A DNA stretch of 64,000 nucleotides from Limnochordia bacterium. Its GTDB lineage: Bacteria > Bacillota > Limnochordia > DTU080. The stretch is from positions 64,001 through 128,000 of the forward strand of contig JBMNJG010000003.1 of the NCBI GenBank assembly GCA_050951545.1, in the 5' to 3' direction. The notes below the pieces were generated by a model, which was not told the origin of the DNA, made no database searches, and was given only the letters and a program-made list of their open reading frames with translations. Below, one piece after another: positions 7,378 to 63,127 of this stretch (within the stretch, counting starts at the first letter, position 1; each line of letters starts with the position of its first letter). Made by a program: the position numbers and the translations under genes.

Positions 7378-7893
7378 TCAACTTAGGAAGTGAAACGGTG
7401 AGCTGATGCTCTCGGGCTTCCACTCACTGGGTCGCTGACCCGGTAATGATCGGCCAGCCCAATTGCGCGGCGTCGTCGCATGGTTCGAACGCAATAGGGT
7501 GACGAAGACGTTGTACACATTACGCGTGCCCACATCAAGCACATAGGTCTTTCCGGGCAGCAGACTATGAAAAAACCAGTTGTCGGTCAAGCGAGACGTA
7601 TTCACTTCCTGAATAACACGTGGACCATCGTCTACGTCATCAATCATGTATAGGCGAAGGACCAAGGGTAGTTCGTCCCAATCGCACCCAAAATGACGCG
7701 ATGTCATTTCCCGGAATTCCGGAGTCAGCTCCCAGTAGGCATACAGACTCTGGGGATCGCGAGTCATGAGGTCCACGCGAGTGACACCATGAAACGTAGG
7801 AAATGGCGGCGGTGCGAAGCTTGACGCGACCCCGGCCTCGGCACGTGCATCAGAAGAGCGGATCGTGGCACCTGCCGCGAGGTTATCAGGCAC
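7378..7893 (-). CDS. DUF4912 domain protein
   Basis: LMTRDPQSLYAYWE, LVLRLY, LLRSNHATTP; family commonly found upstream of GH57 branching enzymes; start approximate (GTG after AAAGGAGG). Confidence 0.8.
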   Translation of the reverse strand: MPDNLAAGATIRSSDARAEAGVASSFAPPPFPTFHGVTRVDLMTRDPQSLYAYWELTPEFREMTSRHFGCDWDELPLVLRLYMIDDVDDGPRVIQEVNTSRLTDNWFFHSLLPGKTYVLDVGTRNVYNVFVTLLRSNHATTPRNWAGRSLPGQRPSEWKPESISSPFHFLS

Positions 7894-9289: not shown

Positions 9290-10960
9290 TTGGCTCGGAT
9301 CGTCATTGTCGGTGGAGTTGCAGGGGGCATGAGTGCTGCAGCGCGCCTGCGTAGGCTCGACGAATCAGCTGAGATCATCGTTTTTGAAAGAGGTCCGTTC
9401 GTCTCGTTCGCCAACTGTGGCCTTCCTTACTATGCCAGCGGGGTCATTCCCGAGCGCGATGAGCTCATCGTTGAGGATGCGCCATCCCTACGGGCCCAGT
9501 TGCTCCTGGACATCCGTACTGAGACAAACGTCGTATCGATCAATCGCACAGCCAAGACGATTGCTGTGGAGGATACCAATAGGCAACGCAGCGAGGAAGC
9601 CTATGACACGTTGATTCTCTCTCCGGGAGCCGCTGCGGTGCGACCACCCATCCCCGGTGTTGATGATAGCCGCATTCACACGATTCGGTCCATCCCGGAT
9701 ATTGATGCCCTGAAAAGCCGCCTCGACACAGGAAAGCTGCGAGAGGCAGTAGTGGTAGGCGGCGGATTCATCGGAGTGGAGATGGCTGACAATCTACTGC
9801 GAGCCAATGTCAAGGTACACCTGGTGGAAATGACCAACCAAGTGCTATCCAACATGCTCGATCCAGATATGGCTGCCTTCGCGCATGCGCACCTGCGCAG
9901 CAAGGGTCTTCATCTTCACTTTGGCTCACCAGTACATGAGTTCGTCGATCACGACGGTCAGCTTGCCGTCGTCTTGAGCAACGGCTCTTACCTGAAGGCC
10001 GATGCAGTGATCCTAGCCATCGGTGTGCGACCCGAAGTGAACCTGGCTGTAGCGGCCGGGTTGGCCTTGGGGCTCCGCGGAGGCATCGCTGTGGACGAGT
10101 ACCTGCGCACTTCAGATCCTCATATCTACGCCATAGGCGATGCCATCGAAGCACGAGATGTTGTGACGGGCTCTCAGACCCTCGTTGCCCTGGCTGGCCC
10201 TGCTAACAAGCAAGGCCGCCTTGTGGCGGACAATATCTATGGCCGCCGTGTCCCCTACAAGGGCACCCAAGGAACAGCGATAGTCGACGCCCTCGGTATG
10301 GTCGCTGCGGGAACAGGAGCCACTTCGGCAGCCTTGAAGCGAGCAGGGCTCCCCCATCTGGCATCCGTCATCCATGCTTACTCCAACGCCGCCTACTTCC
10401 CCGGTGCCACACCTCTGACCATCAAACTGCTTTTCGACCAGAAAGGGCGCATTCTTGGTGCTCAGGTTGTTGGGGAAAAAGGAGTTGACAAGCGAATCGA
10501 TGTTCTCGCCACCGCATTGCGGCTGGGAGCTACGGTCTACGATCTGCAAGAGCTCGAGCTGGCCTATGCACCGCAGTTTGGATCAGCAAAAGACCCCGTA
10601 AACATAGCCGGATATGTAGCAGGCAACATTCTGGCTGGTGATGTGACGACGGTGCAGGCCACACAGGTCCCTGACCTCGAGAACATCGCCACGTTTCTTG
10701 ATGTTCGCGAGCCTGAGGAGCATGCCCGAGGCTCTATCCCAGGGAGCCTGAACATCCCACTGGCCCAGCTCCGAGAACGCCTAAGCGAGATTCCCCGCGG
10801 GAAACCAGTAGTCGTCTACTGCCAGGTTGGACGACGGGCATACATCGCCTGTCGCGCGCTGAGACAGCTTGGCCTTGATGTCGCCAACCTCGCTGGCGGA
10901 TGGCGCTCCTACGCAGCGCTGAAGTCAGAAGAAAGCAGAGCCATGAGCCTAACACACTAG
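9290..10960 (+). CDS. CoA-disulfide reductase with C-terminal rhodanese domain (CoADR-RHD / persulfide reductase type)
   Basis: GGVAGG, SFANCGLPY, GGGFIG, ELAYAPQFGSAKDP, rhodanese YCQVGRR; TTG start after GGGAGGGG. Confidence 0.9.
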   Translation: MARIVIVGGVAGGMSAAARLRRLDESAEIIVFERGPFVSFANCGLPYYASGVIPERDELIVEDAPSLRAQLLLDIRTETNVVSINRTAKTIAVEDTNRQRSEEAYDTLILSPGAAAVRPPIPGVDDSRIHTIRSIPDIDALKSRLDTGKLREAVVVGGGFIGVEMADNLLRANVKVHLVEMTNQVLSNMLDPDMAAFAHAHLRSKGLHLHFGSPVHEFVDHDGQLAVVLSNGSYLKADAVILAIGVRPEVNLAVAAGLALGLRGGIAVDEYLRTSDPHIYAIGDAIEARDVVTGSQTLVALAGPANKQGRLVADNIYGRRVPYKGTQGTAIVDALGMVAAGTGATSAALKRAGLPHLASVIHAYSNAAYFPGATPLTIKLLFDQKGRILGAQVVGEKGVDKRIDVLATALRLGATVYDLQELELAYAPQFGSAKDPVNIAGYVAGNILAGDVTTVQATQVPDLENIATFLDVREPEEHARGSIPGSLNIPLAQLRERLSEIPRGKPVVVYCQVGRRAYIACRALRQLGLDVANLAGGWRSYAALKSEESRAMSLTH

Positions 10961-52752: not shown

Positions 52753-52754
52753 GC

Positions 52755-52800
52755 TGGTAGGGAAGAGCGGACTCGAACCGCTGACCTCCACGATGTCAAC
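52755..52800 (-). repeat. att site: displaced 3' half of tRNA-Val(GAC)
   Basis: 46 bp matching 63051-63096 with 5 mismatches; identical 18-bp core GACCTCCACGATGTCAAC. Confidence 0.93.
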
Positions 52801-52923
52801 TATATTCAGCTCAGAATTGCCTCTCTGCGCCCGTGTTCGCTTGCGTCCGAATGTGGCCTGTATGCTGGCCTTTGGTTATTCTCGCCGACTTCGTGTTGTT
52901 CGCTGGTGTCGCCCCGTTTCCGG

Positions 52924-52948
52924 TCTATTGGCAGTACTGTGGCAGTAC
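52924..52948. repeat. Putative integrase arm-type site (TGGCAGTAC x2, 11-bp period); other copies at 57335-57359 and 62974-62993
   Basis: TCTATTGGCAGTACTGTGGCAGTAC identical at 52924 and 57335; TGGCAGTACAATGGCAGTAC at 62974. Confidence 0.75.
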
Positions 52949-53516
52949 AAAATAACGCTTTGTCATAGGTGCGCCCGCTACCGATACCTGTTGCCGCGCG
53001 GTGAACAGTGGCGCGGCCTACTTTGTTTTCCGCGGCAACCGCGTCAATGGTTTTGGGCAAGTTATCACTTTGAGAACTTGCCGCCGCCCGCCCGCTCCCG
53101 CTCGTGCCGCCGCTCGGGCGCCCGCTACCGCCGTCCGCGCGGTGACGTGGGGCCTTGTTTGAACGTCGATGCGCATCCGTCCAGCTTGACTTCTCACTCC
53201 CGCGGTCCCCGCCGTGACTTTGCCGTCGTTCGCGCCGCCGGGTATTCCTTCCCGTCCGAACCGGTGACTGTTGCAGGTGTAGACATTTGTCTACACCTTC
53301 GGCTGTCGGTCTGCTCGCACCGTGTCATGTGGCTGAACCCCCAACCGCCCCGCAATGCGCCGCAGGCTCCAGCCTTGTTGGCAAACAAATGGCCTTCATA
53401 GACGCCGTTTTGAGCCACGCAAGAAGGGCGCAGGTGTAAAGAGTGCCCCACGCCGTCTACTCGCCTAGAAAGGGCCTTCCTGTGCGCCTGGCAGGGTTCT
53501 CGCTCGCCAGACAGGG

Positions 53517-53544
53517 GAAGCCCCAAGGTTTCCCCTGGGGCTTC
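53517..53544 (-). terminator. Hairpin ending the element's minus-strand late operon
   Basis: GAAGCCCCA..TGGGGCTTC about 30 bp after stop at 53573. Confidence 0.55.
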
Positions 53545-53572
53545 GCTACTCCGTCCGTTTTGTGAGCTACAC

Positions 53573-54405
53573 TCAGGCGCCTTCTGCTAGGTGCTTACCG
53601 AACTCCGCCGCGAATTCATCAAGCAAGGGGTTCGTCACCGGGCCGTCGTCCGTTACACCCTCCGCCCACCATGTGCTTGCATCTGCTGCTGCGCCCTTCA
53701 CCGCGTTCTGTAGCAATAGACGGTCAAAGCCGAGCTTGTCATCTGTGTTCTTGTGCAGCTCTTCCTCGTATTGCTCCGCTCTGGAAACTAGGTCTGCGTA
53801 CTTTGGGAAGGTCTCAGCGAACGCCGCTTCACTCAACTGCTCCAGCTCCGCCCGCTTCGTCGTGATGGTCCGCAAGGTACGGTTTTGGGCGTCGATTCGT
53901 TGCTCTTGCGTTTCAGGGAAGAAGCTGGGGCCTTCTGTCGATTGTGTCAGCTCCTCGATTCGCCTTAAGGCCTTGTCCATGTTGCGAATCCAAGCATAGC
54001 GCTGCGCCTTGTTGGTTGTGTATGTTGTCCCTTCCTTGAATGCCGCTACCACGTCATCGGGCTTGCGCGCTAGGTTAATCTTTGCCTCAACTTCCCGGTC
54101 AAAGATTAGAATCTCGTTGCCGAACTGCGAAGGGGAAACCAGGTCACTAGCAGACTGCCGGAAGTCTCGCGCCACCGCTTCGCAGTAGTTTTGAGCTTCA
54201 CGCGCTAGGGCTACACTGTCGCCATATGCCTTCTCTAGCCTTTGGGCCGCCTGGCGTAGCGCCTCGAACTGGTCGTAGCGCTTCAAGTGACATATCAGAG
54301 TAGTACCGCCAGCGCGGATTGGCAAACACCTGCGCCACGTCCTCCTTAAACTCGTCGATAGCCTGTTGGATAAGCGCCCGCCGTTTCTACGCTCCACAAC
54401 TCCAT
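53573..54405 (-). CDS. Hypothetical helical/coiled-coil protein; 5' end apparently frameshifted
   Basis: ORF 53573..54397; plausible N-terminus MELWSVE/KRRALIQQAIDEFKEDVAQVF lies in other frames. Confidence 0.55.
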
Positions 54406-54674
54406 TGCCACCACTCCGCTCCTTGTTGGTTTAGCGCCGAGACCGGGTTACCGCCAGTCCCGCCGGTCCCTTGCTTGTTTGGTGCCCACAAGCCGCCGCG
54501 GTCGCGCAGGGAACCGTCGATAACCTCATCAATGTTCGCCACGCCGCCCTTGTCGTCAAGCTGAACCTCGCCTTTGTGCAGGGCAACGATACTCTGGGGA
54601 GACTTCGCCCCGTGCTCTGCCGCCTTCGCCACCAATGCCGCCTTAACGATTGCGTCCTTCTGCCACTGCTCCAA
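54387..54674 (-). CDS. Phage scaffolding-protein-like small protein
   Basis: TTG after AAGGAGGTG; IVKAALVAKAAEHGAKSP...VQLDDKGGVANIDEVI...GTGGTGGNP resembles the C-terminal half of siphophage scaffold proteins. Confidence 0.5.
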   Translation of the reverse strand: MEQWQKDAIVKAALVAKAAEHGAKSPQSIVALHKGEVQLDDKGGVANIDEVIDGSLRDRGGLWAPNKQGTGGTGGNPVSALNQQGAEWWQWSCGA

Positions 54675-54687
54675 CCTCGCCACCTCC

Positions 54688-56172
54688 TTAGCGCTCATCA
54701 CCTGGAACGTGCTGAACACTGAACTCGTAGACATACACACCGTCCCGCCGCGCCCGTTTGCGCATGGTCTCCATCTGGTAAAGCAAGCTCGACACTTGGG
54801 AGTCTTCGTCACTCCAAGCAGGAGCAAGGTTAATCCTGCCCGTCTCTAGGGTGCCGACCTTGTGGGCTTGCTCCTCCGCCGCTAGGGCCGCCAGGGCCAC
54901 CGCCGTAACGTGGTCGTCGTGCCCGCCGGAAGGATGGTCAAGCCGCCAACTGTTGCGGTTTTGCACTACTTGCAGGCGCCGCAGCTCTTCCATCAGCTCT
55001 TCATGTGGATAGCACTTCAACAAGCCGTCCCGAATGAGTTGAAGCAGGTGGCTGTCGAGCTTTTGCCGGAAAGCCGTGGTAAAGCGCTGGTCTACGCATC
55101 GCAGACCACTTGCCTGCAAGCGCTCCACCAAGCCTGCCGCTTGCCAGAAGTCACAGGAAACTACCAACCTCTTGAACGCGCGATTCACTAGCAGGAGATC
55201 GTCCTCAACGTCCGAAAGAAGCACCCGCTCTTCTCGCGAACCTTGCCACGTCCTCAGACTGTCAACCACCGTCTTTTGCCCTTCGCGGTGAACAATTGCT
55301 CGCACCGTTCTGTCATGCACTAACCCCAGATCGACACCAACGAAATACGCAACGCCATGCTTGCCCTCCACCTGCCGGGTTAGAGTGTTGTCGAACACCC
55401 CCTGCACCTCGTCTTCTGTGAGCACAGAACCAGATGAGCTGACCCATTCGTTCAGGTGTAACCGCCGGAAAACCTCAGCAGGTAATAGGCGCCGCTGCTC
55501 CTCCAACCATTCCTCTTTGATCCAACTGGCACACTGGCCGCGGCTCTTGAAGTACCAGCCTGGCGTGTTCTGTGCCAAGTGGTACAGCTCTTCGGACCAA
55601 TGCCCAATCACTCCGCAGGTTCCGATAGTCACGAACCGGCAACCTGGAACCTTGCCTGTTGCTGAGAAAAGCGCATCGAATAGGCGCCTGTCGGGCCATT
55701 CGGCAAGCTCATCGCAGCATATCCAGGTGGGTAGAAGCCCGTAGGCCGAAGGTGCGTCCGACGATAGCACCGTTAGTCTGGCGCCCGTTGCTGGAACCGC
55801 AATGCCGTCCTTAGTTATCTCTGCGTTCATCGCCAGGAGCTGCGTCCGCCGAATGTAGCCTGTAGCCAGCTCATGCAGCAGACTAGCCTGGTCCTTGTCC
55901 ACCGCTGCTGCATAAAGACGCCCGCCCTTGGGGCCTAAAAATAGCTCCGCCACACACTCCGCCGCCAGGTCCGAGGTCTTACTGTGGCCGCGAGGTCGCC
56001 AAATGGAAGCATTCGGCAAGTCCTGCCGCCTGTCGAGCGCCGCCAAGTCCTCCGCTTGCCAGGGTTCCAGGGAGGCGCCGTAAGAGCGCCCGTCAGGCAA
56101 GACTAGCACCTCCCGCCGGAATGTCATTCTGTCATCCTTCCAGCGCTCTAGCGCCGCCGTTAGCCGCTCCAT
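54688..56172 (-). CDS. Terminase large subunit
   Basis: Adenine-binding LEPWQ, Walker A-like PRGHSKT, AAVDKDQA, Walker B ICCDE, FRRLHLNEW, nuclease VGVDLG and HDDHV. Confidence 0.85.
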   Translation of the reverse strand: MERLTAALERWKDDRMTFRREVLVLPDGRSYGASLEPWQAEDLAALDRRQDLPNASIWRPRGHSKTSDLAAECVAELFLGPKGGRLYAAAVDKDQASLLHELATGYIRRTQLLAMNAEITKDGIAVPATGARLTVLSSDAPSAYGLLPTWICCDELAEWPDRRLFDALFSATGKVPGCRFVTIGTCGVIGHWSEELYHLAQNTPGWYFKSRGQCASWIKEEWLEEQRRLLPAEVFRRLHLNEWVSSSGSVLTEDEVQGVFDNTLTRQVEGKHGVAYFVGVDLGLVHDRTVRAIVHREGQKTVVDSLRTWQGSREERVLLSDVEDDLLLVNRAFKRLVVSCDFWQAAGLVERLQASGLRCVDQRFTTAFRQKLDSHLLQLIRDGLLKCYPHEELMEELRRLQVVQNRNSWRLDHPSGGHDDHVTAVALAALAAEEQAHKVGTLETGRINLAPAWSDEDSQVSSLLYQMETMRKRARRDGVYVYEFSVQHVPGDER

Positions 56173-56377
56173 TACCGCCACCTCCCAACTCCCGCAAACA
56201 CTCTCGCAGACAGGCAATTAACTGTCCTTCGCCTTCTTGCGCTACACTCTGGGCAACCATCCGCGCCACAGGATTGGTTGTCGCTTCTAGGCCTTTCAGA
56301 GTATCAATGAGTACGCCGATAACATCGGTCATGTCCACCTGCACCGTCTCACCCGTTCTCAGTCTGAGCGAAGCCAT
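56132..56377 (-). CDS. Hypothetical protein
   Basis: MASLRLRTGETVQ..., RBS GAGGTGG, coupled to terL. Confidence 0.55.
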   Translation of the reverse strand: MASLRLRTGETVQVDMTDVIGVLIDTLKGLEATTNPVARMVAQSVAQEGEGQLIACLRECLRELGGGGNGAANGGARALEG

Positions 56378-56481
56378 TGCCGCCACCTCGCCTTAAGATA
56401 CGCTTGCACATGACGCCGCTTCAGGCGCCACACAAGCCCCAAGCTCCCGCCGATGATTCCAGCCACCACCTGCACTGCCAT
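56359..56481 (-). CDS. 40-aa hydrophobic/basic peptide
   Basis: Not in ORF track; AGGAGGTG RBS; MAVQVVAGIIGGSLGLVWRLKRRHVQAYLKARWRQWLRSD. Confidence 0.5.
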   Translation of the reverse strand: MAVQVVAGIIGGSLGLVWRLKRRHVQAYLKARWRQWLRSD

Positions 56482-56493
56482 GCTCAGCACCTC

Positions 56494-56625
56494 CTACGCT
56501 GTCTTGCCCTTCGTCTTGCCGGGTACCATGCGCTTGCCGCACTTGGTGCAGATCGGCGCCGTCTTGCCGATGTACACCGTCACCGCCCGCTTACACTTGG
56601 GGCATGAGTACGTCTTGGCAGCCAT
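56494..56625 (-). CDS. 43-aa zinc-ribbon protein
   Basis: Not in ORF track; AAGGAG RBS; MAAKTYSCPKCKRAVTVYIGKTAPICTKCGKRMVPGKTKGKTA. Confidence 0.6.
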   Translation of the reverse strand: MAAKTYSCPKCKRAVTVYIGKTAPICTKCGKRMVPGKTKGKTA

Positions 56626-56641
56626 GTGCTCGCTCCTTCCG

Positions 56642-56824
56642 CTAGGCCGATTCAACTAGCCTGCTCCTGTGCTGGTGCCCACAAGACAAGCAGCGAAGCT
56701 CCACAAAGGTAATGCCTGCAAGCTGTGGCGCCACACACTGTTTGCGCCGCTCCCGACAAGACTTAACGCCACACTCCGGACATCTAAGCCAAGTGTCAGT
56801 AATCTCGAATGTGCGTTTACGCAT
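56642..56824 (-). CDS. Small zinc-ribbon protein
   Basis: CPEC...CLSC; start MRKRTF overlaps terS stop after AAGGAGG. Confidence 0.55.
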   Translation of the reverse strand: MRKRTFEITDTWLRCPECGVKSCRERRKQCVAPQLAGITFVELRCLSCGHQHRSRLVESA

Positions 56825-57314
56825 CGCGTTCCGCCTCCTTTCGACGTGTCTCCAGCTCAGCCAAGGCCTCAGCAAGTCCTGCCGCTCGCCCCTGTGTGAG
56901 TCCTAGCTTCGCCCGTGATGCCGGGCTTAGTCCTAGACGGTCAAGGAGCTTGGCTGCCGTCTCAATCGCTTTGAGCTGCATCTCCACCACAGGACGCAGC
57001 TTCCCCTGATCGTTGACAAGTCCGTGCTGCGCTATATACTCCTCAGCTTGCATCACCTTGCGAATCGCTACCGCCGCCAGCTCCAAGGCAACCTCGTCCG
57101 CAGGTCGTAGGTGTGAGATGTTATCACCTGCAAGCAAGTCCTTGATCTGTTGCGACACTGCCTGCACCTCGGGCTGTCCCGGGTTAATAACCGTCACCCC
57201 GTGCTGGTCTCGTTTCTCTCTAAACGGTTTCAGGTTGGCCAGCGCCCGCGCCTTGCCTTCTGGCGTCTTGGGTCCGCCCTTCCCCTTGCCTTGTTTCTTG
57301 CCTAGTTGTGTCAT
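56817..57314 (-). CDS. Terminase small subunit (P27-like)
   Basis: GPKTPEGKARA N-terminal motif; GKLRPVV...LGLSPASRAKL; RBS GGAGGT. Confidence 0.78.
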   Translation of the reverse strand: MTQLGKKQGKGKGGPKTPEGKARALANLKPFREKRDQHGVTVINPGQPEVQAVSQQIKDLLAGDNISHLRPADEVALELAAVAIRKVMQAEEYIAQHGLVNDQGKLRPVVEMQLKAIETAAKLLDRLGLSPASRAKLGLTQGRAAGLAEALAELETRRKEAERDA

Positions 57315-57512
57315 GTCAGCACCTCCGATGCTCTTCTATTGGCAGTACTGTGGCAGTACGCCGTCCGTACACCGCTATTTGATGGGCTTTTTTCGCGACG
57401 TCTTAGGTGACTACTATGTGTTCGTACGCTTGTTCCCCCATGGGGAAGGCCGCCAAAACGTGCCCGCCTGCCAGCTAAGGACCTGTAGGCGCCGTCACGT
57501 TCTACTCGTGTT

Positions 57513-58055
57513 CTAGCTGCCGGGTTCTGCTCGATACGCAACGTTGTCAATCCTTTCTAATCCGTGCCCGTCGGTGAACAGTGCCCGCCCAAGGGCCGTG
57601 CAGAACCAGGTGGTATCGGGCGTGCCACCATCCACCTTCGTCACCATGACACCTGCCACAAGCAGCTTCGCCTTGATGACACTGTGTAGCTCGCCCGCTG
57701 GCAGATTCGCATCAATGACTAGCATGACTTCATCCATGGCGAAGGCTACTGTGCCATTGTCCAGGTGCTGCCGGGCCGCCGCCACGTCCCTGCATAGCGC
57801 CACCTGCTCGCCTAGTGCCGCCGAATCTAGTAACGCCCAACCCCTCGCATGGAGTTGCCGGGTAGCTTCGGCAACGTCCTCCGCTGTCGGGCCTCGAAGC
57901 AACTCCATCAATGCAGGCTTGTGGCGCCGTAGTGCTTCCCGCAGCTCGTCCGTCACCGCGCCCTGCGGGTCAGCTACCACGCGCAGCTTGTCGCCGTTTA
58001 CCGATAGCTCGATGCCACGCCGTCTACACTCCATCAGCAACTGCATGGGTGTCAT
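57513..58055 (-). CDS. TubC-N-like domain protein
   Basis: LLMECRRRGIELSVNGDKLRV...LREALRRHKPALMELL; ATGA overlap with helicase gene. Confidence 0.65.
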   Translation of the reverse strand: MTPMQLLMECRRRGIELSVNGDKLRVVADPQGAVTDELREALRRHKPALMELLRGPTAEDVAEATRQLHARGWALLDSAALGEQVALCRDVAAARQHLDNGTVAFAMDEVMLVIDANLPAGELHSVIKAKLLVAGVMVTKVDGGTPDTTWFCTALGRALFTDGHGLERIDNVAYRAEPGS

Positions 58056-59800
58056 AGCTCGAACACCTCCGAAGCCTTATTCCCCTCCGCGGCAGATAGT
58101 GTGTGTTTTCTTGCGTCAGATGTGTCAGTTGCGTCAGACATACCTTGTAAACCGCGCAACGAAGGGCTTTTCCTGTCTGACGATGTATCTGACGCAAGTA
58201 TGTTCGATGATGGGTTTGCGTCAGACGTTGCGTCAGACGCAGAAACCCCGTTGTTATCGCCTTTAGGGGCCACATCTGACGCATCTGACGTGTCTGACGC
58301 TACTTTGTGGGTACTATCTATCCTCACAAGTCGGGTCCCCTTTTTGTCGCCGGCGCGCCTGTCCAGGTCAACATTAATGCCAACCTGTCGCAAAGCCGTA
58401 GAGCTTCGCCGCAACCGGTTAGACAGACTTCGGGCCGAACCGGGCCACGTTTTGGCGTTTCGCATCTTATCGCTCGCGTGGTCCTCCAACTCATCCAATA
58501 GCTCCGTCATGGTGCCCTCGAAGCCGTCCGGTTTGTGCTTCAAAAGCTCACACACCGTGAATGCTACTGCGTCACTTTCGATGCCAAGATCTACGGCCTC
58601 GGCGCGGTTCTCGGCATACGCCTTAAGCGCTGTGCCCTCGGGCCACCCGAAAGCCTCTTCTGCTGCCGTTGCCCACACCGCAAAGTCAGCCATGCGCGGC
58701 TTGCGCGGCAGGTGGACAGAATCCACTCGCCGCAGCGCGGTCGATACGCCATCAAGCAACGCACCAAACACCCGCGGGCGAACAAGCTCCCAATCTCGCC
58801 AGAAAGTTGCCTCGGTTTTCCTCTCAGCATCGGGTATGGGTGGCAGAACCAAATTTAGCGAACGGTCTGCTAAGTCATGACGGGTTGCAATGTCGTCAAT
58901 GCCGTTAAGAATCACGGGCCGCTGGTAGTCGAACAGGGCTTCTTCGCTGTCTGTGTACAGCTCACGCGTTGCGAATCCGCCGCCCGTTGCCACGCGACAG
59001 ATAGCATCCGACAACCACACAGGAACACCCGACAAGTTGTCCAAACAGACCAACCAAGCGTTACTAGCATGAATCGCCAAATCCCGTTCGTTGCGCGGCG
59101 CCGTTCTAAGGGGTACGCTCGATGGGTCAATCAACGAAACCAATACCCGCGCCGTTATGCTTTTTCCCGAACCCTGTTCGCCTAGCAGAATCCATACAGC
59201 GTAGGGGCCGGTAGGTCGGTAGCACGAAACTAGCCCAGACACCACCAATACCCTTTGTCCTTCGTCGGGTATGTTGACGAAAGGCCACAGCTCATCGATG
59301 CTCCCGCCCGCCACAGGGTGAGGAAGGGGCGCCATGCCCCGCCCGCGCCGAAAGCGCACAGGAGGGTTAGATATGACTCGCCAACCTGTAGCGGTCACCT
59401 CTACCGCCTCCCAAGCATCGTTAGCCAAGTCAATATATATGCACCCCTGCGCCTCGCCCACGCGGATAAAGACGTTGTGCTGTTCGCCTTTGTAGCAAGC
59501 AATCGCAGTAATGGTGTTGCGCGCATCGGTCATCGCCTGCGAAGACGGGCCGTTCTCGTGCTGTTCGTAATATGTCGCCTCTAGCCATCGCCTAAAGCCG
59601 CTAGACATCACGGGCCAATGTTCCCGATGCTCATCACAAGTTACAGTCGCCCAAGGCTCGAAGTCCTGCGTGTGCCATAGCTCCGCTGTCTTGGCAATCT
59701 CAATCAGCAGTTCCCTTTGAGTAGGCTTGCCCTTCGCGGATTCGTCGTCTTGCTGCTCCTTCGCTTTGGCCAATGCATCCAGTCCGTCCAGCTCTTGCAT
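58052..59800 (-). CDS. Replication ATPase/helicase of phage-satellite type
   Basis: Walker A GEQGSGKS, LDNLS, RELYTDSEE, DLADR; repetitive SDASD tail. Confidence 0.75.
   Translation of the reverse strand: MQELDGLDALAKAKEQQDDESAKGKPTQRELLIEIAKTAELWHTQDFEPWATVTCDEHREHWPVMSSGFRRWLEATYYEQHENGPSSQAMTDARNTITAIACYKGEQHNVFIRVGEAQGCIYIDLANDAWEAVEVTATGWRVISNPPVRFRRGRGMAPLPHPVAGGSIDELWPFVNIPDEGQRVLVVSGLVSCYRPTGPYAVWILLGEQGSGKSITARVLVSLIDPSSVPLRTAPRNERDLAIHASNAWLVCLDNLSGVPVWLSDAICRVATGGGFATRELYTDSEEALFDYQRPVILNGIDDIATRHDLADRSLNLVLPPIPDAERKTEATFWRDWELVRPRVFGALLDGVSTALRRVDSVHLPRKPRMADFAVWATAAEEAFGWPEGTALKAYAENRAEAVDLGIESDAVAFTVCELLKHKPDGFEGTMTELLDELEDHASDKMRNAKTWPGSARSLSNRLRRSSTALRQVGINVDLDRRAGDKKGTRLVRIDSTHKVASDTSDASDVAPKGDNNGVSASDATSDANPSSNILASDTSSDRKSPSLRGLQGMSDATDTSDARKHTLSAAEGNKASEVFEL
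58115..58298. repeat. Dyad-symmetric array of 10 GTCAG(A) iterons (putative origin)
   Basis: 3 forward, 2 reverse, 2 forward, 3 reverse copies, mirrored around 58206/58207. Confidence 0.8.
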
Positions 59801-60297
59801 CACGCCACCCCCTCTGCATGGCGTTTGGCGACCCAATTGACGATGCCAAGCACCTCATATGCAGGAACAGGTGGCTCACATCGCATCCATGCCCACGCAA
59901 CCACCAATGCCGCCGTAACGTATGGGTCGACACCTCGGGCCAGTAGACTTCCGCTCAGAGATCGAATCGTCTTGTAACGGTCATCGCCCGTAGCTCCTAG
60001 AATGACATGCCGCCTCCAACCGTCAAGAGGGGAATGCAACTCCAGCGCTAGGGGAACAGGTTGCCGTCTTGGTTCATCGGGTTCACCCGCCGCTGTGATC
60101 GCCGCCGTGATAAGCTGCTCCAGCTCTTTATCGCCTAGAAGAAGGCCATGCTGTTGCTCTAGCTCAGTGAGAATTTCGCGCAAAATAGGCCGCGGTACGA
60201 AATACCGGGCCAGGCATTCAGCCACATGGATAAGGCGCTGCTTACCGTCCTTCCGGGCCGTCTCGCTAGAGCCGGTCTCCTCGCGCAGCAGGTCCAT
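59800..60297 (-). CDS. Primase C-terminal (PriCT-1-like) domain protein
   Basis: SLSGSLLARG...RCEPPVPAYEVLGIV; no polymerase domain seen. Confidence 0.6.
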   Translation of the reverse strand: MDLLREETGSSETARKDGKQRLIHVAECLARYFVPRPILREILTELEQQHGLLLGDKELEQLITAAITAAGEPDEPRRQPVPLALELHSPLDGWRRHVILGATGDDRYKTIRSLSGSLLARGVDPYVTAALVVAWAWMRCEPPVPAYEVLGIVNWVAKRHAEGVA

Positions 60298-60477
60298 GAC
60301 TACCCGTTCAGCTACGGGTTCAGGTGCGCCGTTGTCGCAGCATGGCCGCGAATAAGCGCACATTCGCCTTCGCCTGTGGTAAACTGGTGGTGTGTCGCTG
60401 TCTCCACATGAAGGCACCTCCTGGCGCCACCGTTACCGCGGTGGCGCTCTGTCGTTGTTGTCGTTGTCAACAATGCA

Positions 60478-60690
60478 CTAACCATCACACTGCACCAACC
60501 CTCTGGCAGCCAACTCCACCAAGGCTTTCCTTGGGACTCGCCGGGAATTGCCGATCTTGACGTAAACCAACTCACCACTAGACATAAGCTGGTAAACCCT
60601 GGTCCGCCCAAACCCCAGCCACTCGCACGCCTCGTTCACCGTCATCAGTCCGTCTGACAAAAGAGCTTCCGTTCCTTTCTGCGCCTTCAT
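60478..60690 (-). CDS. Excisionase / HTH_17 DNA-binding protein
   Basis: LMTVNEACEWLGFGRTRVYQLMSSGEL..VKIGNSRRVP; RBS AGGAGGGG. Confidence 0.85.
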   Translation of the reverse strand: MKAQKGTEALLSDGLMTVNEACEWLGFGRTRVYQLMSSGELVYVKIGNSRRVPRKALVELAARGLVQCDG

Positions 60691-60818
60691 TATGGATAAC
60701 CCCCTCCTGTTACGTGTTGGTATGCGTTCACCATAACACACATGGACAAATTAGGCAACATGTGTTACTGTGTTTTTAGCGTAACGGCAACACCATTCAG
60801 CGATAGGAGAGGATTGCC

Positions 60819-61770
60819 ATGCCGAATGAACCTGTGTTCTTTGCCTGGAGTGTGCCTACGAGCGGCTACAAGTGGACCGACGCCAAGACGGTGGAAGGGA
60901 GAACCGGGCCGTTTTCTGATAGCACACCGGAATGTGACCGGAAAAGTCAAACGTTACCAGCCACTGCAACTGCACTCAGCGCTTTTTCGGTCGTTTGCGG
61001 ACATCACACCAGACAGAGGACGACATCCTGCTCATTTGCTAATGAGTACGGAAGGCTTACTGCACCGGGCGAGATGCTTATAGTGCCATCGGAAAGGAGC
61101 CCCAGAGAAGGCACCCTCGATGCCGGGGAACCGCTCTCGTTGTGGGTGTCTGAAATTGCTGATATGAACCAAGCGCTTACCTTGTGGGATATGGCGCAGG
61201 ACCGCGATGTTACTGGCCTTAGCGATTTCATTCACTGGTCAGGGAACAGTGTGCATTACGATAGTGGGCCAGGGCTAGAACGAACCACCAGGACCGTTGC
61301 ACACCTTGACGAGGAACCCCGCCTGAGTCGGTATTCTGCTGCATGGTGATCTTGTTACCCCCGCCCTCTTCCAGGTCCAACACGTTGTAAACCAGCACCT
61401 TGAAGGGCGACTATCGCCAAAGGTACTTTGGGACACAGACTATACGCACTTGAACCTGCACTTCATGCCGGAATCGCTCATAGGCGCCCTTTGGCTGCAG
61501 TTCGCCCAAGCCATTGACGGCAACAAGACTTACCGCCGTTGTGACGAATGCCGGGCATGGTTTGAGCTTTCGCCGGAGGTAGCGCGCACAACCAAACGCT
61601 TCTGCTCAAATGCCTGTAGGGTAAAGGCCTACCGCAACCGTAAAGCTACCGCCCGCCAACTCCATAGCAAAGGGGTTCGGATTGAAGAAATAGCTACCCG
61701 CCTTGACTCCGATCCTGAAACGGTTGCAGGTTGGGTATCCGACACTGAAGGTAACACAAAGGAGGAATGA
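60819..61770 (+). CDS. CGNR-type zinc-finger regulator with C-terminal HTH; frameshifted near 60914, 61020 and 61330
   Basis: Joined frames give LFRSFA..FANEYG..GEPLSLW..PESLIGALWLQF..CDEC..FCSNACRVKAYR. Confidence 0.65.
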
Positions 61771-61774
61771 CGGC

Positions 61775-62959
61775 ATGGCAGCCAAGAAGGGGCAAGGTTC
61801 TGTGAGATTCCGGGCTGACAAGGGCCTTTGGTGTGGCCAAGTCAGTCTAGGGTACCGCACAGACCAAGCGGAAAGCGCACGGTTCGTAAGACGTTTTACG
61901 GCAAGACTCAGCAGGAAGTACTCGATGCCATGGCGCGCCTGCAGGGCGACATTCTAGCAGGCAAGCCGATCCCCAACGACAGGCTTACCGTGAAGCAGCA
62001 CTTTGAAGACTGGTTGCGCTCCAAGAAAGCTGGCGTCGCCAGGAGCACCTATACGCAGTACGAAGGGCATGTTCAGACTCACATTATCCCTTCCTTGGGA
62101 CGTATCAAACTGAAGGACTTGGATTACCGCCGCATAAACGCCTTCTACGATGAGCTACACAACCGGGAAGACAAACTCGCCCCGCGCACCATCTACGACA
62201 TTGGCGCCATCCTACGCTCAGGACTTGAAGACGCAGTGCGCAAAGGGCTTGTACCCTCCAATCAAGGGAAACTGGCTGCAAAGCTCAGTAGGGGAGACAA
62301 GGAAGCTCGCTTTCTCAACCCCCAGGAGCTGGCCAGCTTCCTCGAAGCCTGCAAGGGCGAACGTCTAGAGAATGCATTCATTCTAGCCATCAATACCGGT
62401 ATGCGTCCCGGCGAATGGCTTGGCCTGTCGTGGGATGCCGTCGATCTGCAACAGGGAAAGCTCACTGTCAGGCAAGCGCTTCACGAAGTCTCGGGGAAGG
62501 TATATCTGGGCGACGTGAAAACGAAGGCCAGCAGGAGAACCATCTCTTTGCCGAAGGACGCCGTTCAAGCATTGCGCCGACAACGCAAGCATCAGACTCG
62601 AAGAGCAGCTTGCCTCTGGTGGCAGATGGGTCAATGAAGAGAACCTAGTCTTCACCGATACCCAAGGCGGTCTCCTACGCCGCACCAACGTATCTAAACG
62701 TGATATGAAGCGCATCGTCCGCCGTGCCGATCTCGAAGACGCAACACTGCACACCTTCCGCCATACTCACGCCAGCCTGCTGATCGCCGCAGGTGTCGAC
62801 ATCAAGACAATCTCCCGACGCCTGGGCCATGAGAATATCACGATCACGCTTCAGACCTACGGCCACTTGATGCCGGGCCAAGACGAACGGGCCGCCGACG
62901 TGATGGATACCATTCTCGCCGGGCTGCCATCTGTACCTCCCATGGCCTCCCGCCTCTAG
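61775..62959 (+). CDS. Tyrosine integrase (Tn916/ICEBs1-like); frameshifts near 61860 and 62597
   Basis: Arm-binding N-terminus (GQGSVRFR..W..RKTFYGKT), TGMRPGE, KT, HTFRH, LGH, TYGH. Confidence 0.9.
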
Positions 62960-63010
62960 CTACCAAAACCTAATGGCAGTACAATGGCAGTACAGAAGCA
63001 ACAAATGCTG

Positions 63011-63035
63011 AAAGCCCTACCGCTTGGTAGGGCTT
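63011..63035 (-). terminator. Element-supplied terminator for the reconstituted tRNA
   Basis: AAGCCCTACC-GCTT-GGTAGGGCTT. Confidence 0.7.
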
Positions 63036-63050
63036 CTAGCTGCTGTTTTC

Positions 63051-63127
63051 TGGTGGGGAAGCACGGACTCGAACCGTGGACCTCCACGATGTCAACGTGG
63101 CGATCTAACCAACTGATCTACTTCCCC
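63051..63127 (-). tRNA. tRNA-Val(GAC), integration target
   Basis: GGGGAAG..CCACG TTGACAT CGTGG..CACGG TTCGAGT CCGTG CTTCCCC ACCA. Confidence 0.95.

Follow-up and report, generated by a model that had tools for sequence, protein, structure and literature searches.

What does a third copy of a putative integrase arm-type site do directly in front of a small-terminase gene, about 4.4–5.6 kb away from the att sites and from int? This question is raised by an island in a 64-kb stretch of bacterial DNA (the window, i.e. the whole stretch that was analysed), in which the gene adjacent to and downstream of the internal copy is terS.

A tRNA-Val island with three copies of a paired repeat

The 9-mer TGGCAGTAC is present in the window in six exact copies that form three pairs with an 11-bp period, all of them on the plus strand (pair starts 52929/52940, 57340/57351 and 62974/62985). 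The paired pattern, allowing for up to two mismatches, was found at three sites in the entire genome (3,642,164 bases), all inside one 10.3-kb island, and the reversed control pattern produced no matches genome-wide. The repeat is thus confirmed as real and far beyond chance; the three pairs, their coordinates and the 25-bp identity between two of them, as originally described in a sequence-only reading of this DNA, were all borne out by the exact-match count in the window. The left 25-mer (52924–52948) is reproduced exactly at 57335–57359, and the right copy shows an 84 % match. Beyond these 25 bp no similarity was detected between the left and the internal site, the identity stopping abruptly on both sides. 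Within them, the two copies also agree at all seven non-motif positions, which other elements do not conserve; identity at 7 out of 7 positions that are unconserved elsewhere argues for a recent duplication or conversion rather than for long independent selection.

The island (52801–63050 of the window) is an integrative element borne by a tRNA-Val gene; an Rfam search returned only two tRNAs above threshold. The flanking att repeats share an 18-bp identical core block (52783–52800 and 63079–63096), and the comparison of the repeats, together with an excision junction (see below), places the crossover inside this block. The features of the island are as follows:

52754–52800, no strand assigned: left att repeat (displaced 3' part of tRNA-Val), 47 nt, 89 % against the right repeat
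52924–52948, plus strand: putative P-arm 25-mer with a TGGCAGTAC pair (52929, 52940), 128 bp from the core
53573–54397, minus strand: ORF of 274 aa, the final long gene of the packaging string, no match in Pfam or PHROGs
54688–56217, minus strand: TerL, large terminase subunit (PF03354, phrog_9)
56817–57314, minus strand: TerS, small terminase subunit of the Terminase_4 family (Pfam/PHROGs)
57320–57326, minus strand: Shine-Dalgarno sequence GGAGGTG of terS, from reading of the sequence
57335–57359, plus strand: internal 25-mer with the third TGGCAGTAC pair (57340, 57351), on the strand opposite to terS
57362–57370, plus strand: degenerate third repeat (6/9; repeat family D1) in the same 11-bp register as the internal pair
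57433–57447, no strand assigned: GC-rich palindrome TTCCCCC-ATGGGGAA, within the gap that separates terS from the 180-aa ORF
57494–57510, minus strand: inverted repeat CACG-7 nt-CGTG with a weak, marginal likeness to the core, at a distance of about 135 bp from the internal pair
57513–58055, minus strand: ORF of 180 aa with a TubC_N-like N-terminus (Pfam)
58052–59836, minus strand: replication-type protein of 594 aa, the marker of the island family, with GCGTCAGA-type repeats at the 3' end of its gene
60478–60741, minus strand: HTH_17 excisionase-like gene, which opens the leftward string (Pfam, PHROGs)
61450–61770, plus strand: zinc-ribbon and HTH protein of 106 aa, directly upstream of int (Pfam)
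61775–62959, plus strand: tyrosine integrase gene int, with two frame changes in the assembly
62974–62993, plus strand: putative P'-arm TGGCAGTAC pair, 15 nt beyond the end of int; distance to the core 85 bp
63050–63096, no strand assigned: right att repeat, overlapping the tRNA-Val gene
63051–63127, minus strand: tRNA-Val(gac), intact, the integration target

The leftward gene string starts from 60741 with the excisionase-like gene, followed by a 205-aa ORF, the 594-aa protein, the 180-aa ORF, a spacer of about 198 bp and TerS; past TerS it continues with two small zinc-ribbon ORFs, an 84-aa ORF, TerL and three uncharacterised ORFs. The spacer between the 180-aa ORF and terS is the largest non-coding gap of this string. 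The rightward genes comprise a 176-aa ORF, the 106-aa zinc-ribbon/HTH ORF and the integrase. A combined Pfam and PHROGs analysis of the 17 ORFs failed to recognise any capsid, portal or tail gene, the sole structural hint being a sub-threshold scaffold match (24 bits, with a cut-off of 35 bits). Given that capsid, portal and tail genes are missing from the Pfam and PHROGs results, the island looks like a phage satellite with its own terminase: a small element combining int, replication and packaging genes, in which neither collection reveals virion structural genes.

The island or its close variants are present in at least 20 runs from 15 studies (digester, sludge and bioreactor metagenomes). 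A search for TerL homologues yielded 90 proteins, the closest of which (P0002–P0004) show 72 %, 72 % and 66 % identity; identity to the proteins of the phage collection reaches 33 % at most. About 80 metagenomic proteins, mostly unnamed, make up the TerL family, and the longest contigs known for them are mostly short (about 1.5–20 kb). This would be in keeping with small elements that carry a terminase and are widespread.

Variant contigs of other runs depart from the window at local hot spots: about 67 bp are replaced at the junction between terS and the 77-aa zinc-ribbon ORF (56782–56850), and 154 bp at the left end (53039–53194) are skipped or replaced. A deletion form of the island was considered as the cause of depth and word shares of about 0.6 and rejected, as these shares reflect diverged variants. 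In all relatives inspected, the 594-aa gene carries at its 3' end clusters of short repeats, often spaced by 9–12 bp, the repeat words differing between relatives (GCGTCAGA-type in the window, at 58113–58300; other clusters at 10712–10815 in L037, 9245–9372 in L038, 9219–9313 in L039 and 5119–5282 in L251). These clusters could be replication-origin iterons.

Arm-type sites, the excised form and the integrase

Arm-type sites are textbook parts of attP. The sequence-only reading had assigned this role to the two outer pairs, and the distances on which it relied (128 and 85 bp) hold when measured against the 18-bp core block. A contig from public run X17 joins position 63078 back to 52783 through 18 shared letters, and a metagenome contig (L132) shows the end of the 106-aa gene, an intact int, a pair, the core, a second pair and the left end of the island in this order, i.e. 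the attP form. These attP-form junctions show that the island excises or circularises in nature. In the attP form two repeats are located on each side of the crossover, which itself falls within the tRNA anticodon loop; the presence of repeats on both sides of the core, as observed in both the X17 and L132 contigs, is the layout of a lambda-Int-type attP.

The same genome contains a sibling island of 6.3 kb (contig C11; locus L008, 5259–13100), which is integrated in tRNA-Lys, has an intact integrase and lacks terminase. Its 594-aa protein is 93 % identical to that of the window island, and the replication genes share 88.6 % nucleotide identity over 2.8 kb; the respective values for the integrase and the excisionase-like protein are 35–42 % and 44 %. 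On both arms the sibling carries a different 9-mer, TACGACCAA, at an 11-bp period and in the same layout, and the paired pattern of TACGACCAA is absent elsewhere in the genome. Beyond the sibling island there is a 300-bp repeat of its att/int end together with a transposase-like ORF, which suggests a tandem remnant.

Scans for the TGGCAGTAC pair returned 32 stretches from 185,579 species genomes (with roughly 17 matches expected by chance according to our own arithmetic) and 67 stretches from metagenome contigs; in viral contigs the paired motif had no matches. In six unrelated MAG or metagenome contigs the pair is found within 0.5 kb downstream of an integrase gene (15–90 bp past the end of the integrase frame in L071, L083, L122 and L155, and about 0.45 kb past it in L076 and L109), and in none of these six were homologues of the other proteins of the island found. 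L071 and L066 belong to one contig with an 8.2-kb island that has pairs at both ends, one by int and one by tRNA-Leu. Overall, the attP junction, the sibling layout and these six contigs make the interpretation of the outer pairs as arm-type sites well supported, in agreement with the original proposal.

Long tandem arrays of the 11-bp unit (TGGCAGTAC plus 2 nt) were also encountered (L093, 1119–1329; L095, 352–407; L110, L129 and L157). They occur in several metagenome contigs and in two MAGs, one archaeal and one from Limnochordia.

In the window integrase about 65–85 residues precede the SAM-like core-binding domain. An AlphaFold model of the N-terminal 65 residues (pLDDT 82–90) contains strands 8–13, 18–29 and 35–44 and a helix 47–63, a predicted combination of three strands and a helix as found in an extra N-terminal arm-binding domain. 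The Pfam family Arm-DNA-bind_4 was detected in the integrase of a distant relative (L038, see below), not in that of the window. A Foldseek search of PDB with the N-terminal domain gave no match at E ≤ 0.001, and the matches obtained by a PDB sequence search with the integrase were confined to the core-binding and catalytic domains. The top match by VIA-align was an AP2 domain (6sy0_A; Z 6.3, rmsd 2.4, 60 aligned residues), a modest score, as values of Z below 8 possibly reflect a common arrangement; two further AP2 domains were matched with Z of 4.4–4.5. AP2 domains resemble integrase arm-binding domains.

A comparison of integrases with their adjacent repeats revealed that the second strand of this domain has the pattern W/Y-x-x-Q in 9 out of 9 integrases encoded beside xxGCAGTAx repeats, and that Q is changed to K, A or I in all four integrases associated with other motifs. 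Altogether, five motifs pair with five integrase types. As the compared integrase genes are kin, and six of them were found via the motif, this link is a correlation rather than a test; it is also loose, since the integrases of L251 and L253 have similar second strands and different motifs. Another protein of these islands, the sigma-like one, is 90 % identical in L038 and L036, yet the repeats of the two differ. Correlatively at least, the motif appears to track the N-terminal domain of the integrase and not the other genes.

The int gene of the window differs from the intact int of L132 by one plus three bases missing near 61866–61881 (the first frame-change zone spans about 61845–61881) and by one extra base near 62598, which amounts to two frame changes. 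The extra letters at 61866–61881 are present in the contigs of four public runs from four studies, independently assembled (X1, X2, X5 and X17), and the X5 contig is one base shorter than the window over 61883–62796. Either the island copy in the window may be grounded, or the assembly may carry indel errors in int; the remaining island ORFs listed have open frames throughout.

The internal pair in the window and in distant relatives

The internal pair is located 13 nt upstream of the Shine-Dalgarno sequence and 26–45 nt upstream of the ATG of terS (at 57314), so the placement just before the ribosome-binding site holds as first described. A scan for promoters and terminators upstream of terS gave no site, and in particular no sigma-70-like promoter; the islands encode sigma-like or HTH proteins, and the terS promoter may therefore be of a non-sigma-70 kind. 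The palindrome at 57433–57447 is a possible hairpin, and a comparable CCCC..GGGG palindrome is found in L251, upstream of its internal pair.

That the internal copy might be an assembly artefact, a concern raised along with the original observation, is contradicted by independently assembled contigs that span the internal site with more than 31 letters on each side (X1 55823–57427, X2 56781–57427, X5 56850–57408 and X17 56850–57565). The X2 contig has no differences from the window over 56781–57427, and the metagenome contig L125 also spans the site, with a spacer that is 100 % identical. The 25-mer is thus genuine and keeps the same context in all of them. The internal copy is retained in 5 out of 5 near-identical assemblies (L125 and the four runs), a count that gives no independent information on conservation.

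Four more distant relatives with terminase genes and recognisable arm pairs were examined (L251, L038, L253 and L249), and the conservation envisaged in the sequence-only reading is found in part of them: besides the near-identical assemblies, L251 and L038 have an internal pair, and L253 and L249 show none. L251 is a 14.5-kb island in the tRNA-Met of a genome of the same class, the only other genome out of 95 with a close TerL. Its identities to the window proteins are 47 % for the 594-aa homologue, 37 % for TerS, 45 % for TerL and about 30 % for the integrase. Within 20 kb its own motif, TGTTGATCA, has seven exact copies, of which the left arm holds three, the right arm two and the internal site the other two; at up to one mismatch there are 10 matches versus 1.29 expected, a number reached in none of 200 shuffles. 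The internal TGTTGATCA pair has a 12-bp period and is inverted relative to the arms of L251; it falls within a 310-bp spacer, 85–105 bp ahead of the start codon of terS. In the window as well as in L251 the internal pair is opposite to the terS strand, although int and terS point away from each other in one of the two islands and run in the same direction in the other, which argues that its orientation follows terS and not att.

The L038 island (10.0 kb) comes from a different family of the phylum; it occupies tRNA-Lys(ctt) and encodes a 594-aa homologue of 45 % identity. Each of its arms carries a pair of its motif TTGCAGTAM, a third pair is placed in the spacer from which the replication and packaging operons diverge, and a degenerate fourth pair directly follows TerL. 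The internal pair is 37–57 bp from the ATG of the replication operon and 215 bp from the packaging operon. The terminases of L038 and L249 belong to another family than those of the window.

Among the islands that show no internal pair, L253 (16 kb) has TTGGGGATA arm pairs and an HNH-TerS-TerL module, and L249 is a partial 9.3-kb contig in the attP form. Internal pairs were likewise not found in islands without terminase genes, namely the sibling and L066/L071. Thus, an internal pair of the island's own motif is present in 3 out of 5 terminase-bearing islands including the window and in 0 out of 2 terminase-free ones, both being small numbers.

Broader searches covered the following ground. 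Phylum-level relatives of the 594-aa protein were analysed in eight genome contexts and then in eight further ones, the first eight being devoid of homologues of the window TerS or TerL. Single-protein scans with TerL of genome, viral and metagenome contigs, as well as that with the 594-aa protein of viral contigs, gave no confirmed locus. From viral contigs, 80 TerL-alignment loci were kept, and the 12 near full-length ones that were scanned have no arm-like paired repeat in two places. In a sample of the phylum, TerL matches were obtained in 72 out of 401 genomes, all of them at ≤38 % identity save the window's own; among eight TerL contexts taken from this sample an arm-paired integrase was seen only in L253.

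Possible roles of the internal pair

We put at about even the chance that the internal pair is a functional integrase-binding site that gates terS–terL. On the P and on the P' arm alike, a pair of TGGCAGTAC 9-mers would be read by the N-terminal domain of a heterobivalent tyrosine integrase, and the third pair (57340–57359) would be a deliberately kept extra integrase site in the control spacer of the terminase operon. Int bound 13 nt upstream of the ribosome-binding site of terS would most likely act as a repressor or a roadblock, hindering transcription into or from the terS leader, so that terS–terL expression would depend on the level of free integrase and hence on the state of integration or excision. 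That Int binds there, that its effect is negative and that this is coupled to excision is what we infer. The recurrence of an internal copy with a co-varying motif in distant relatives supports an integrase-linked function, and the internal copy looks purposeful rather than accidental, given that a distant relative does likewise with its own, different motif. Several observations weaken the gating interpretation: two of the four distant terminase-bearing relatives (L253 and the partial contig L249) show no internal pair, in L038 the pair is closer to the replication than to the packaging operon, the 25-bp identity in the window looks recent, and the core-like sequences by the pairs of L251 and L038 (see below) fit an origin as recombination sites. 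With int broken, the proposed circuit could not work in the window copy unless Int came from elsewhere (in trans) or the frame changes turn out to be errors of the assembly.

The main rival explanation, which we consider rather unlikely, is that of a secondary or pseudo-att site: a scar or a usable joint between the packaging and the replication-integration modules, young or harmless and with no regulatory role. In L251 a sequence about 45 bp from the internal pair (7477–7497) has a 13-nt exact match (17/21 overall) to the att core, i.e. the tRNA-Met anticodon stem-loop, with both half-sites kept and the 7-nt overlap changed. In L038 a hairpin (CTAGA-7 nt-TCTAG) about 40 bp from the pair resembles its own core (CCTGA-7 nt-TCAGG), and L037, another island of the same genus, shares about 97 % identity with L038 as far as the third loop base of this hairpin and is unrelated past that point. 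This homology break inside the core-like hairpin (L038 11630–11650 versus L037 8440–8460), of the kind that strand exchange would leave, looks like a site-specific recombination joint. In the window the evidence for such a site is weak; the 25-bp identity with the left arm takes in non-motif positions, and the terS gene with its spacer is missing from the sibling island, which runs directly from its 180-aa homologue into the two zinc-ribbon ORFs.

On the other hand, no convincing core accompanies the window pair. The earlier remark that no att core lies near it stands, the best candidate being the marginal inverted repeat at 57494–57510, which matches the tRNA-Val anticodon stem-loop core at 12/17, a score reached in 13 out of 300 shuffles. 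The similarity between the window and the sibling stops inside the 180-aa ORF (about 57644–57661), and terS with its upstream spacer is an insertion relative to the sibling whose borders (~57644 and ~56875) do not meet the pair. The boundary of a captured packaging module, as suggested in the sequence-only reading, is therefore only partly recovered: the L038/L037 break falls by the pair and terS is inserted with respect to the sibling, but the ends of this insertion miss the repeat. Variants deleted between 52924 and 57335, which the same reading had envisaged, were not seen: among the joints listed for the four runs there is no contig that skips 52949–57334, and no other deletion or junction via the internal site. 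The internal site is also unlike the middle site of a tandem array, being a single pair that in L251 is inverted relative to the arms, and a neutral scar would be unlikely to hold exact 9-mers before terS in lineages with 37 % TerS identity.

Regulation and a pseudo-att site are compatible, as the integrase could regulate through a pseudo-att site. In a combined version, to which we give only tentative credence, a family of terminase-carrying satellites would time packaging by means of the heterobivalent integrase: a pseudo-att upstream of terS (two arm-type sites and a non-recombining core-like inverted repeat) would nucleate an intasome-like repressor and would occasionally serve as a module-swap joint. 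Upon excision Int and Xis would be drawn into recombination, the complex would be dismantled, and the terminase would be made once the island is free.

It is quite improbable that the protein bound to the pair is not Int but a different product of the island, for instance the HTH_17 excisionase-like one, acting at att and at promoters. Proteins of this kind typically bind direct repeats spaced by roughly one turn of the helix, and the sibling excisionase-like proteins, being only 44 % identical, could explain the differing 9-mers. The action of RDFs as transcription regulators is documented, as described in the accessible part of PMC11963761. Against this stand the correlation of the motif with the strand of the Int N-terminal domain and the tblastn result, in which no excisionase homologue was found in the six contigs with the 9-mer past an integrase, bearing in mind that small RDFs are easily missed. 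Operators of Cox/Apl-type RDFs are known from a single arm, in the interval that separates the core from the arm-type sites. The island has two sites on each of the two arms rather than the one-arm layout of Cox/Apl-type systems, and this number suits four Int N-terminal domains.

A pac or cosB-like recognition site for TerS, put forward as an alternative in the sequence-only reading, is highly implausible. Its appeal comes from the position directly upstream of terS in the window and L251, which recalls the classical layout of lambda cosB with repeats upstream of the small-terminase gene. The repeats are, however, not specific to elements with the cognate TerS: the same pairs are found on both att arms, and terminase-free islands display the two-arm layout (the sibling with its own 9-mer, L066/L071 with the same 9-mer), which makes a pac site unlikely; furthermore, the motif follows the integrase type, and the L038 pair adjoins the replication operon. 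Finally, a chance or neutral, functionless duplication of the left arm site, in line with the young look of the 25-bp identity and with the broken int of the window copy, is scarcely credible: an internal pair recurs independently in L251 and L038, each time with another motif, and is intergenic in all three islands.

If the gating interpretation is true, a dedicated arm-type pair far from att and before a terminase operon would represent new wiring, by which the DNA packaging of a satellite is tied directly to its recombinase. Among the open-access full texts searched, none was found that describes arm-type sites ahead of terminase genes. The occurrence of the own-arm motif upstream of terS would provide a simple sequence rule for finding and sorting such islands, and the core-like sequences beside internal pairs may reveal integrase-driven shuffling of modules between satellites.

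Among known systems, the closest in architecture are the lambda-type heterobivalent integrases, with which the island shares short non-core direct repeats flanking the crossover in attP, an extra N-terminal integrase domain (as modelled) and the 11-bp phasing. Two direct repeats per arm are also characteristic of P2-like phages. In contrast to lambda-type arm sites, the window island has a further pair 4.4–5.6 kb from att, before the terminase genes.

To our knowledge, integrases have been shown to regulate only their own gene, via sites that belong to att. The accessible part of PMC2951348 describes IntS of prophage KplE1 and P4 Int as repressing a promoter via arm-type sites, these being P' sites within attL and the target being int itself. 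The predicted likeness is an integrase acting as a DNA-binding regulator through arm-type sites; the difference is that the target here would be terS–terL and that the site appears to be a dedicated extra one distant from att, so that the KplE1 arrangement (int regulated, sites in attL) is not that of the internal pair.

The directionality factors P2 Cox and 186 Apl recognise helically phased direct repeats, which are found both in attP and in promoter regions. Together with RdfS of ICEMlSymR7A (according to the accessible part of PMC11963761), they resemble the proposed system in that a recombination protein with promoter sites links excision to later functions. Unlike the present case, these are RDFs, and here the repeats go with the type of integrase and are arranged like arm-type sites on either arm. 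Finally, as far as PICIs and phage satellites are described in the accessible part of PMC10085698, the window island resembles them as a small tRNA-borne island with int, an excisionase-like gene, replication genes, terS, an excised form and no recognised virion genes; it differs from them in having both TerS and TerL without capsid genes and in its anaerobic-digester bacterial host.
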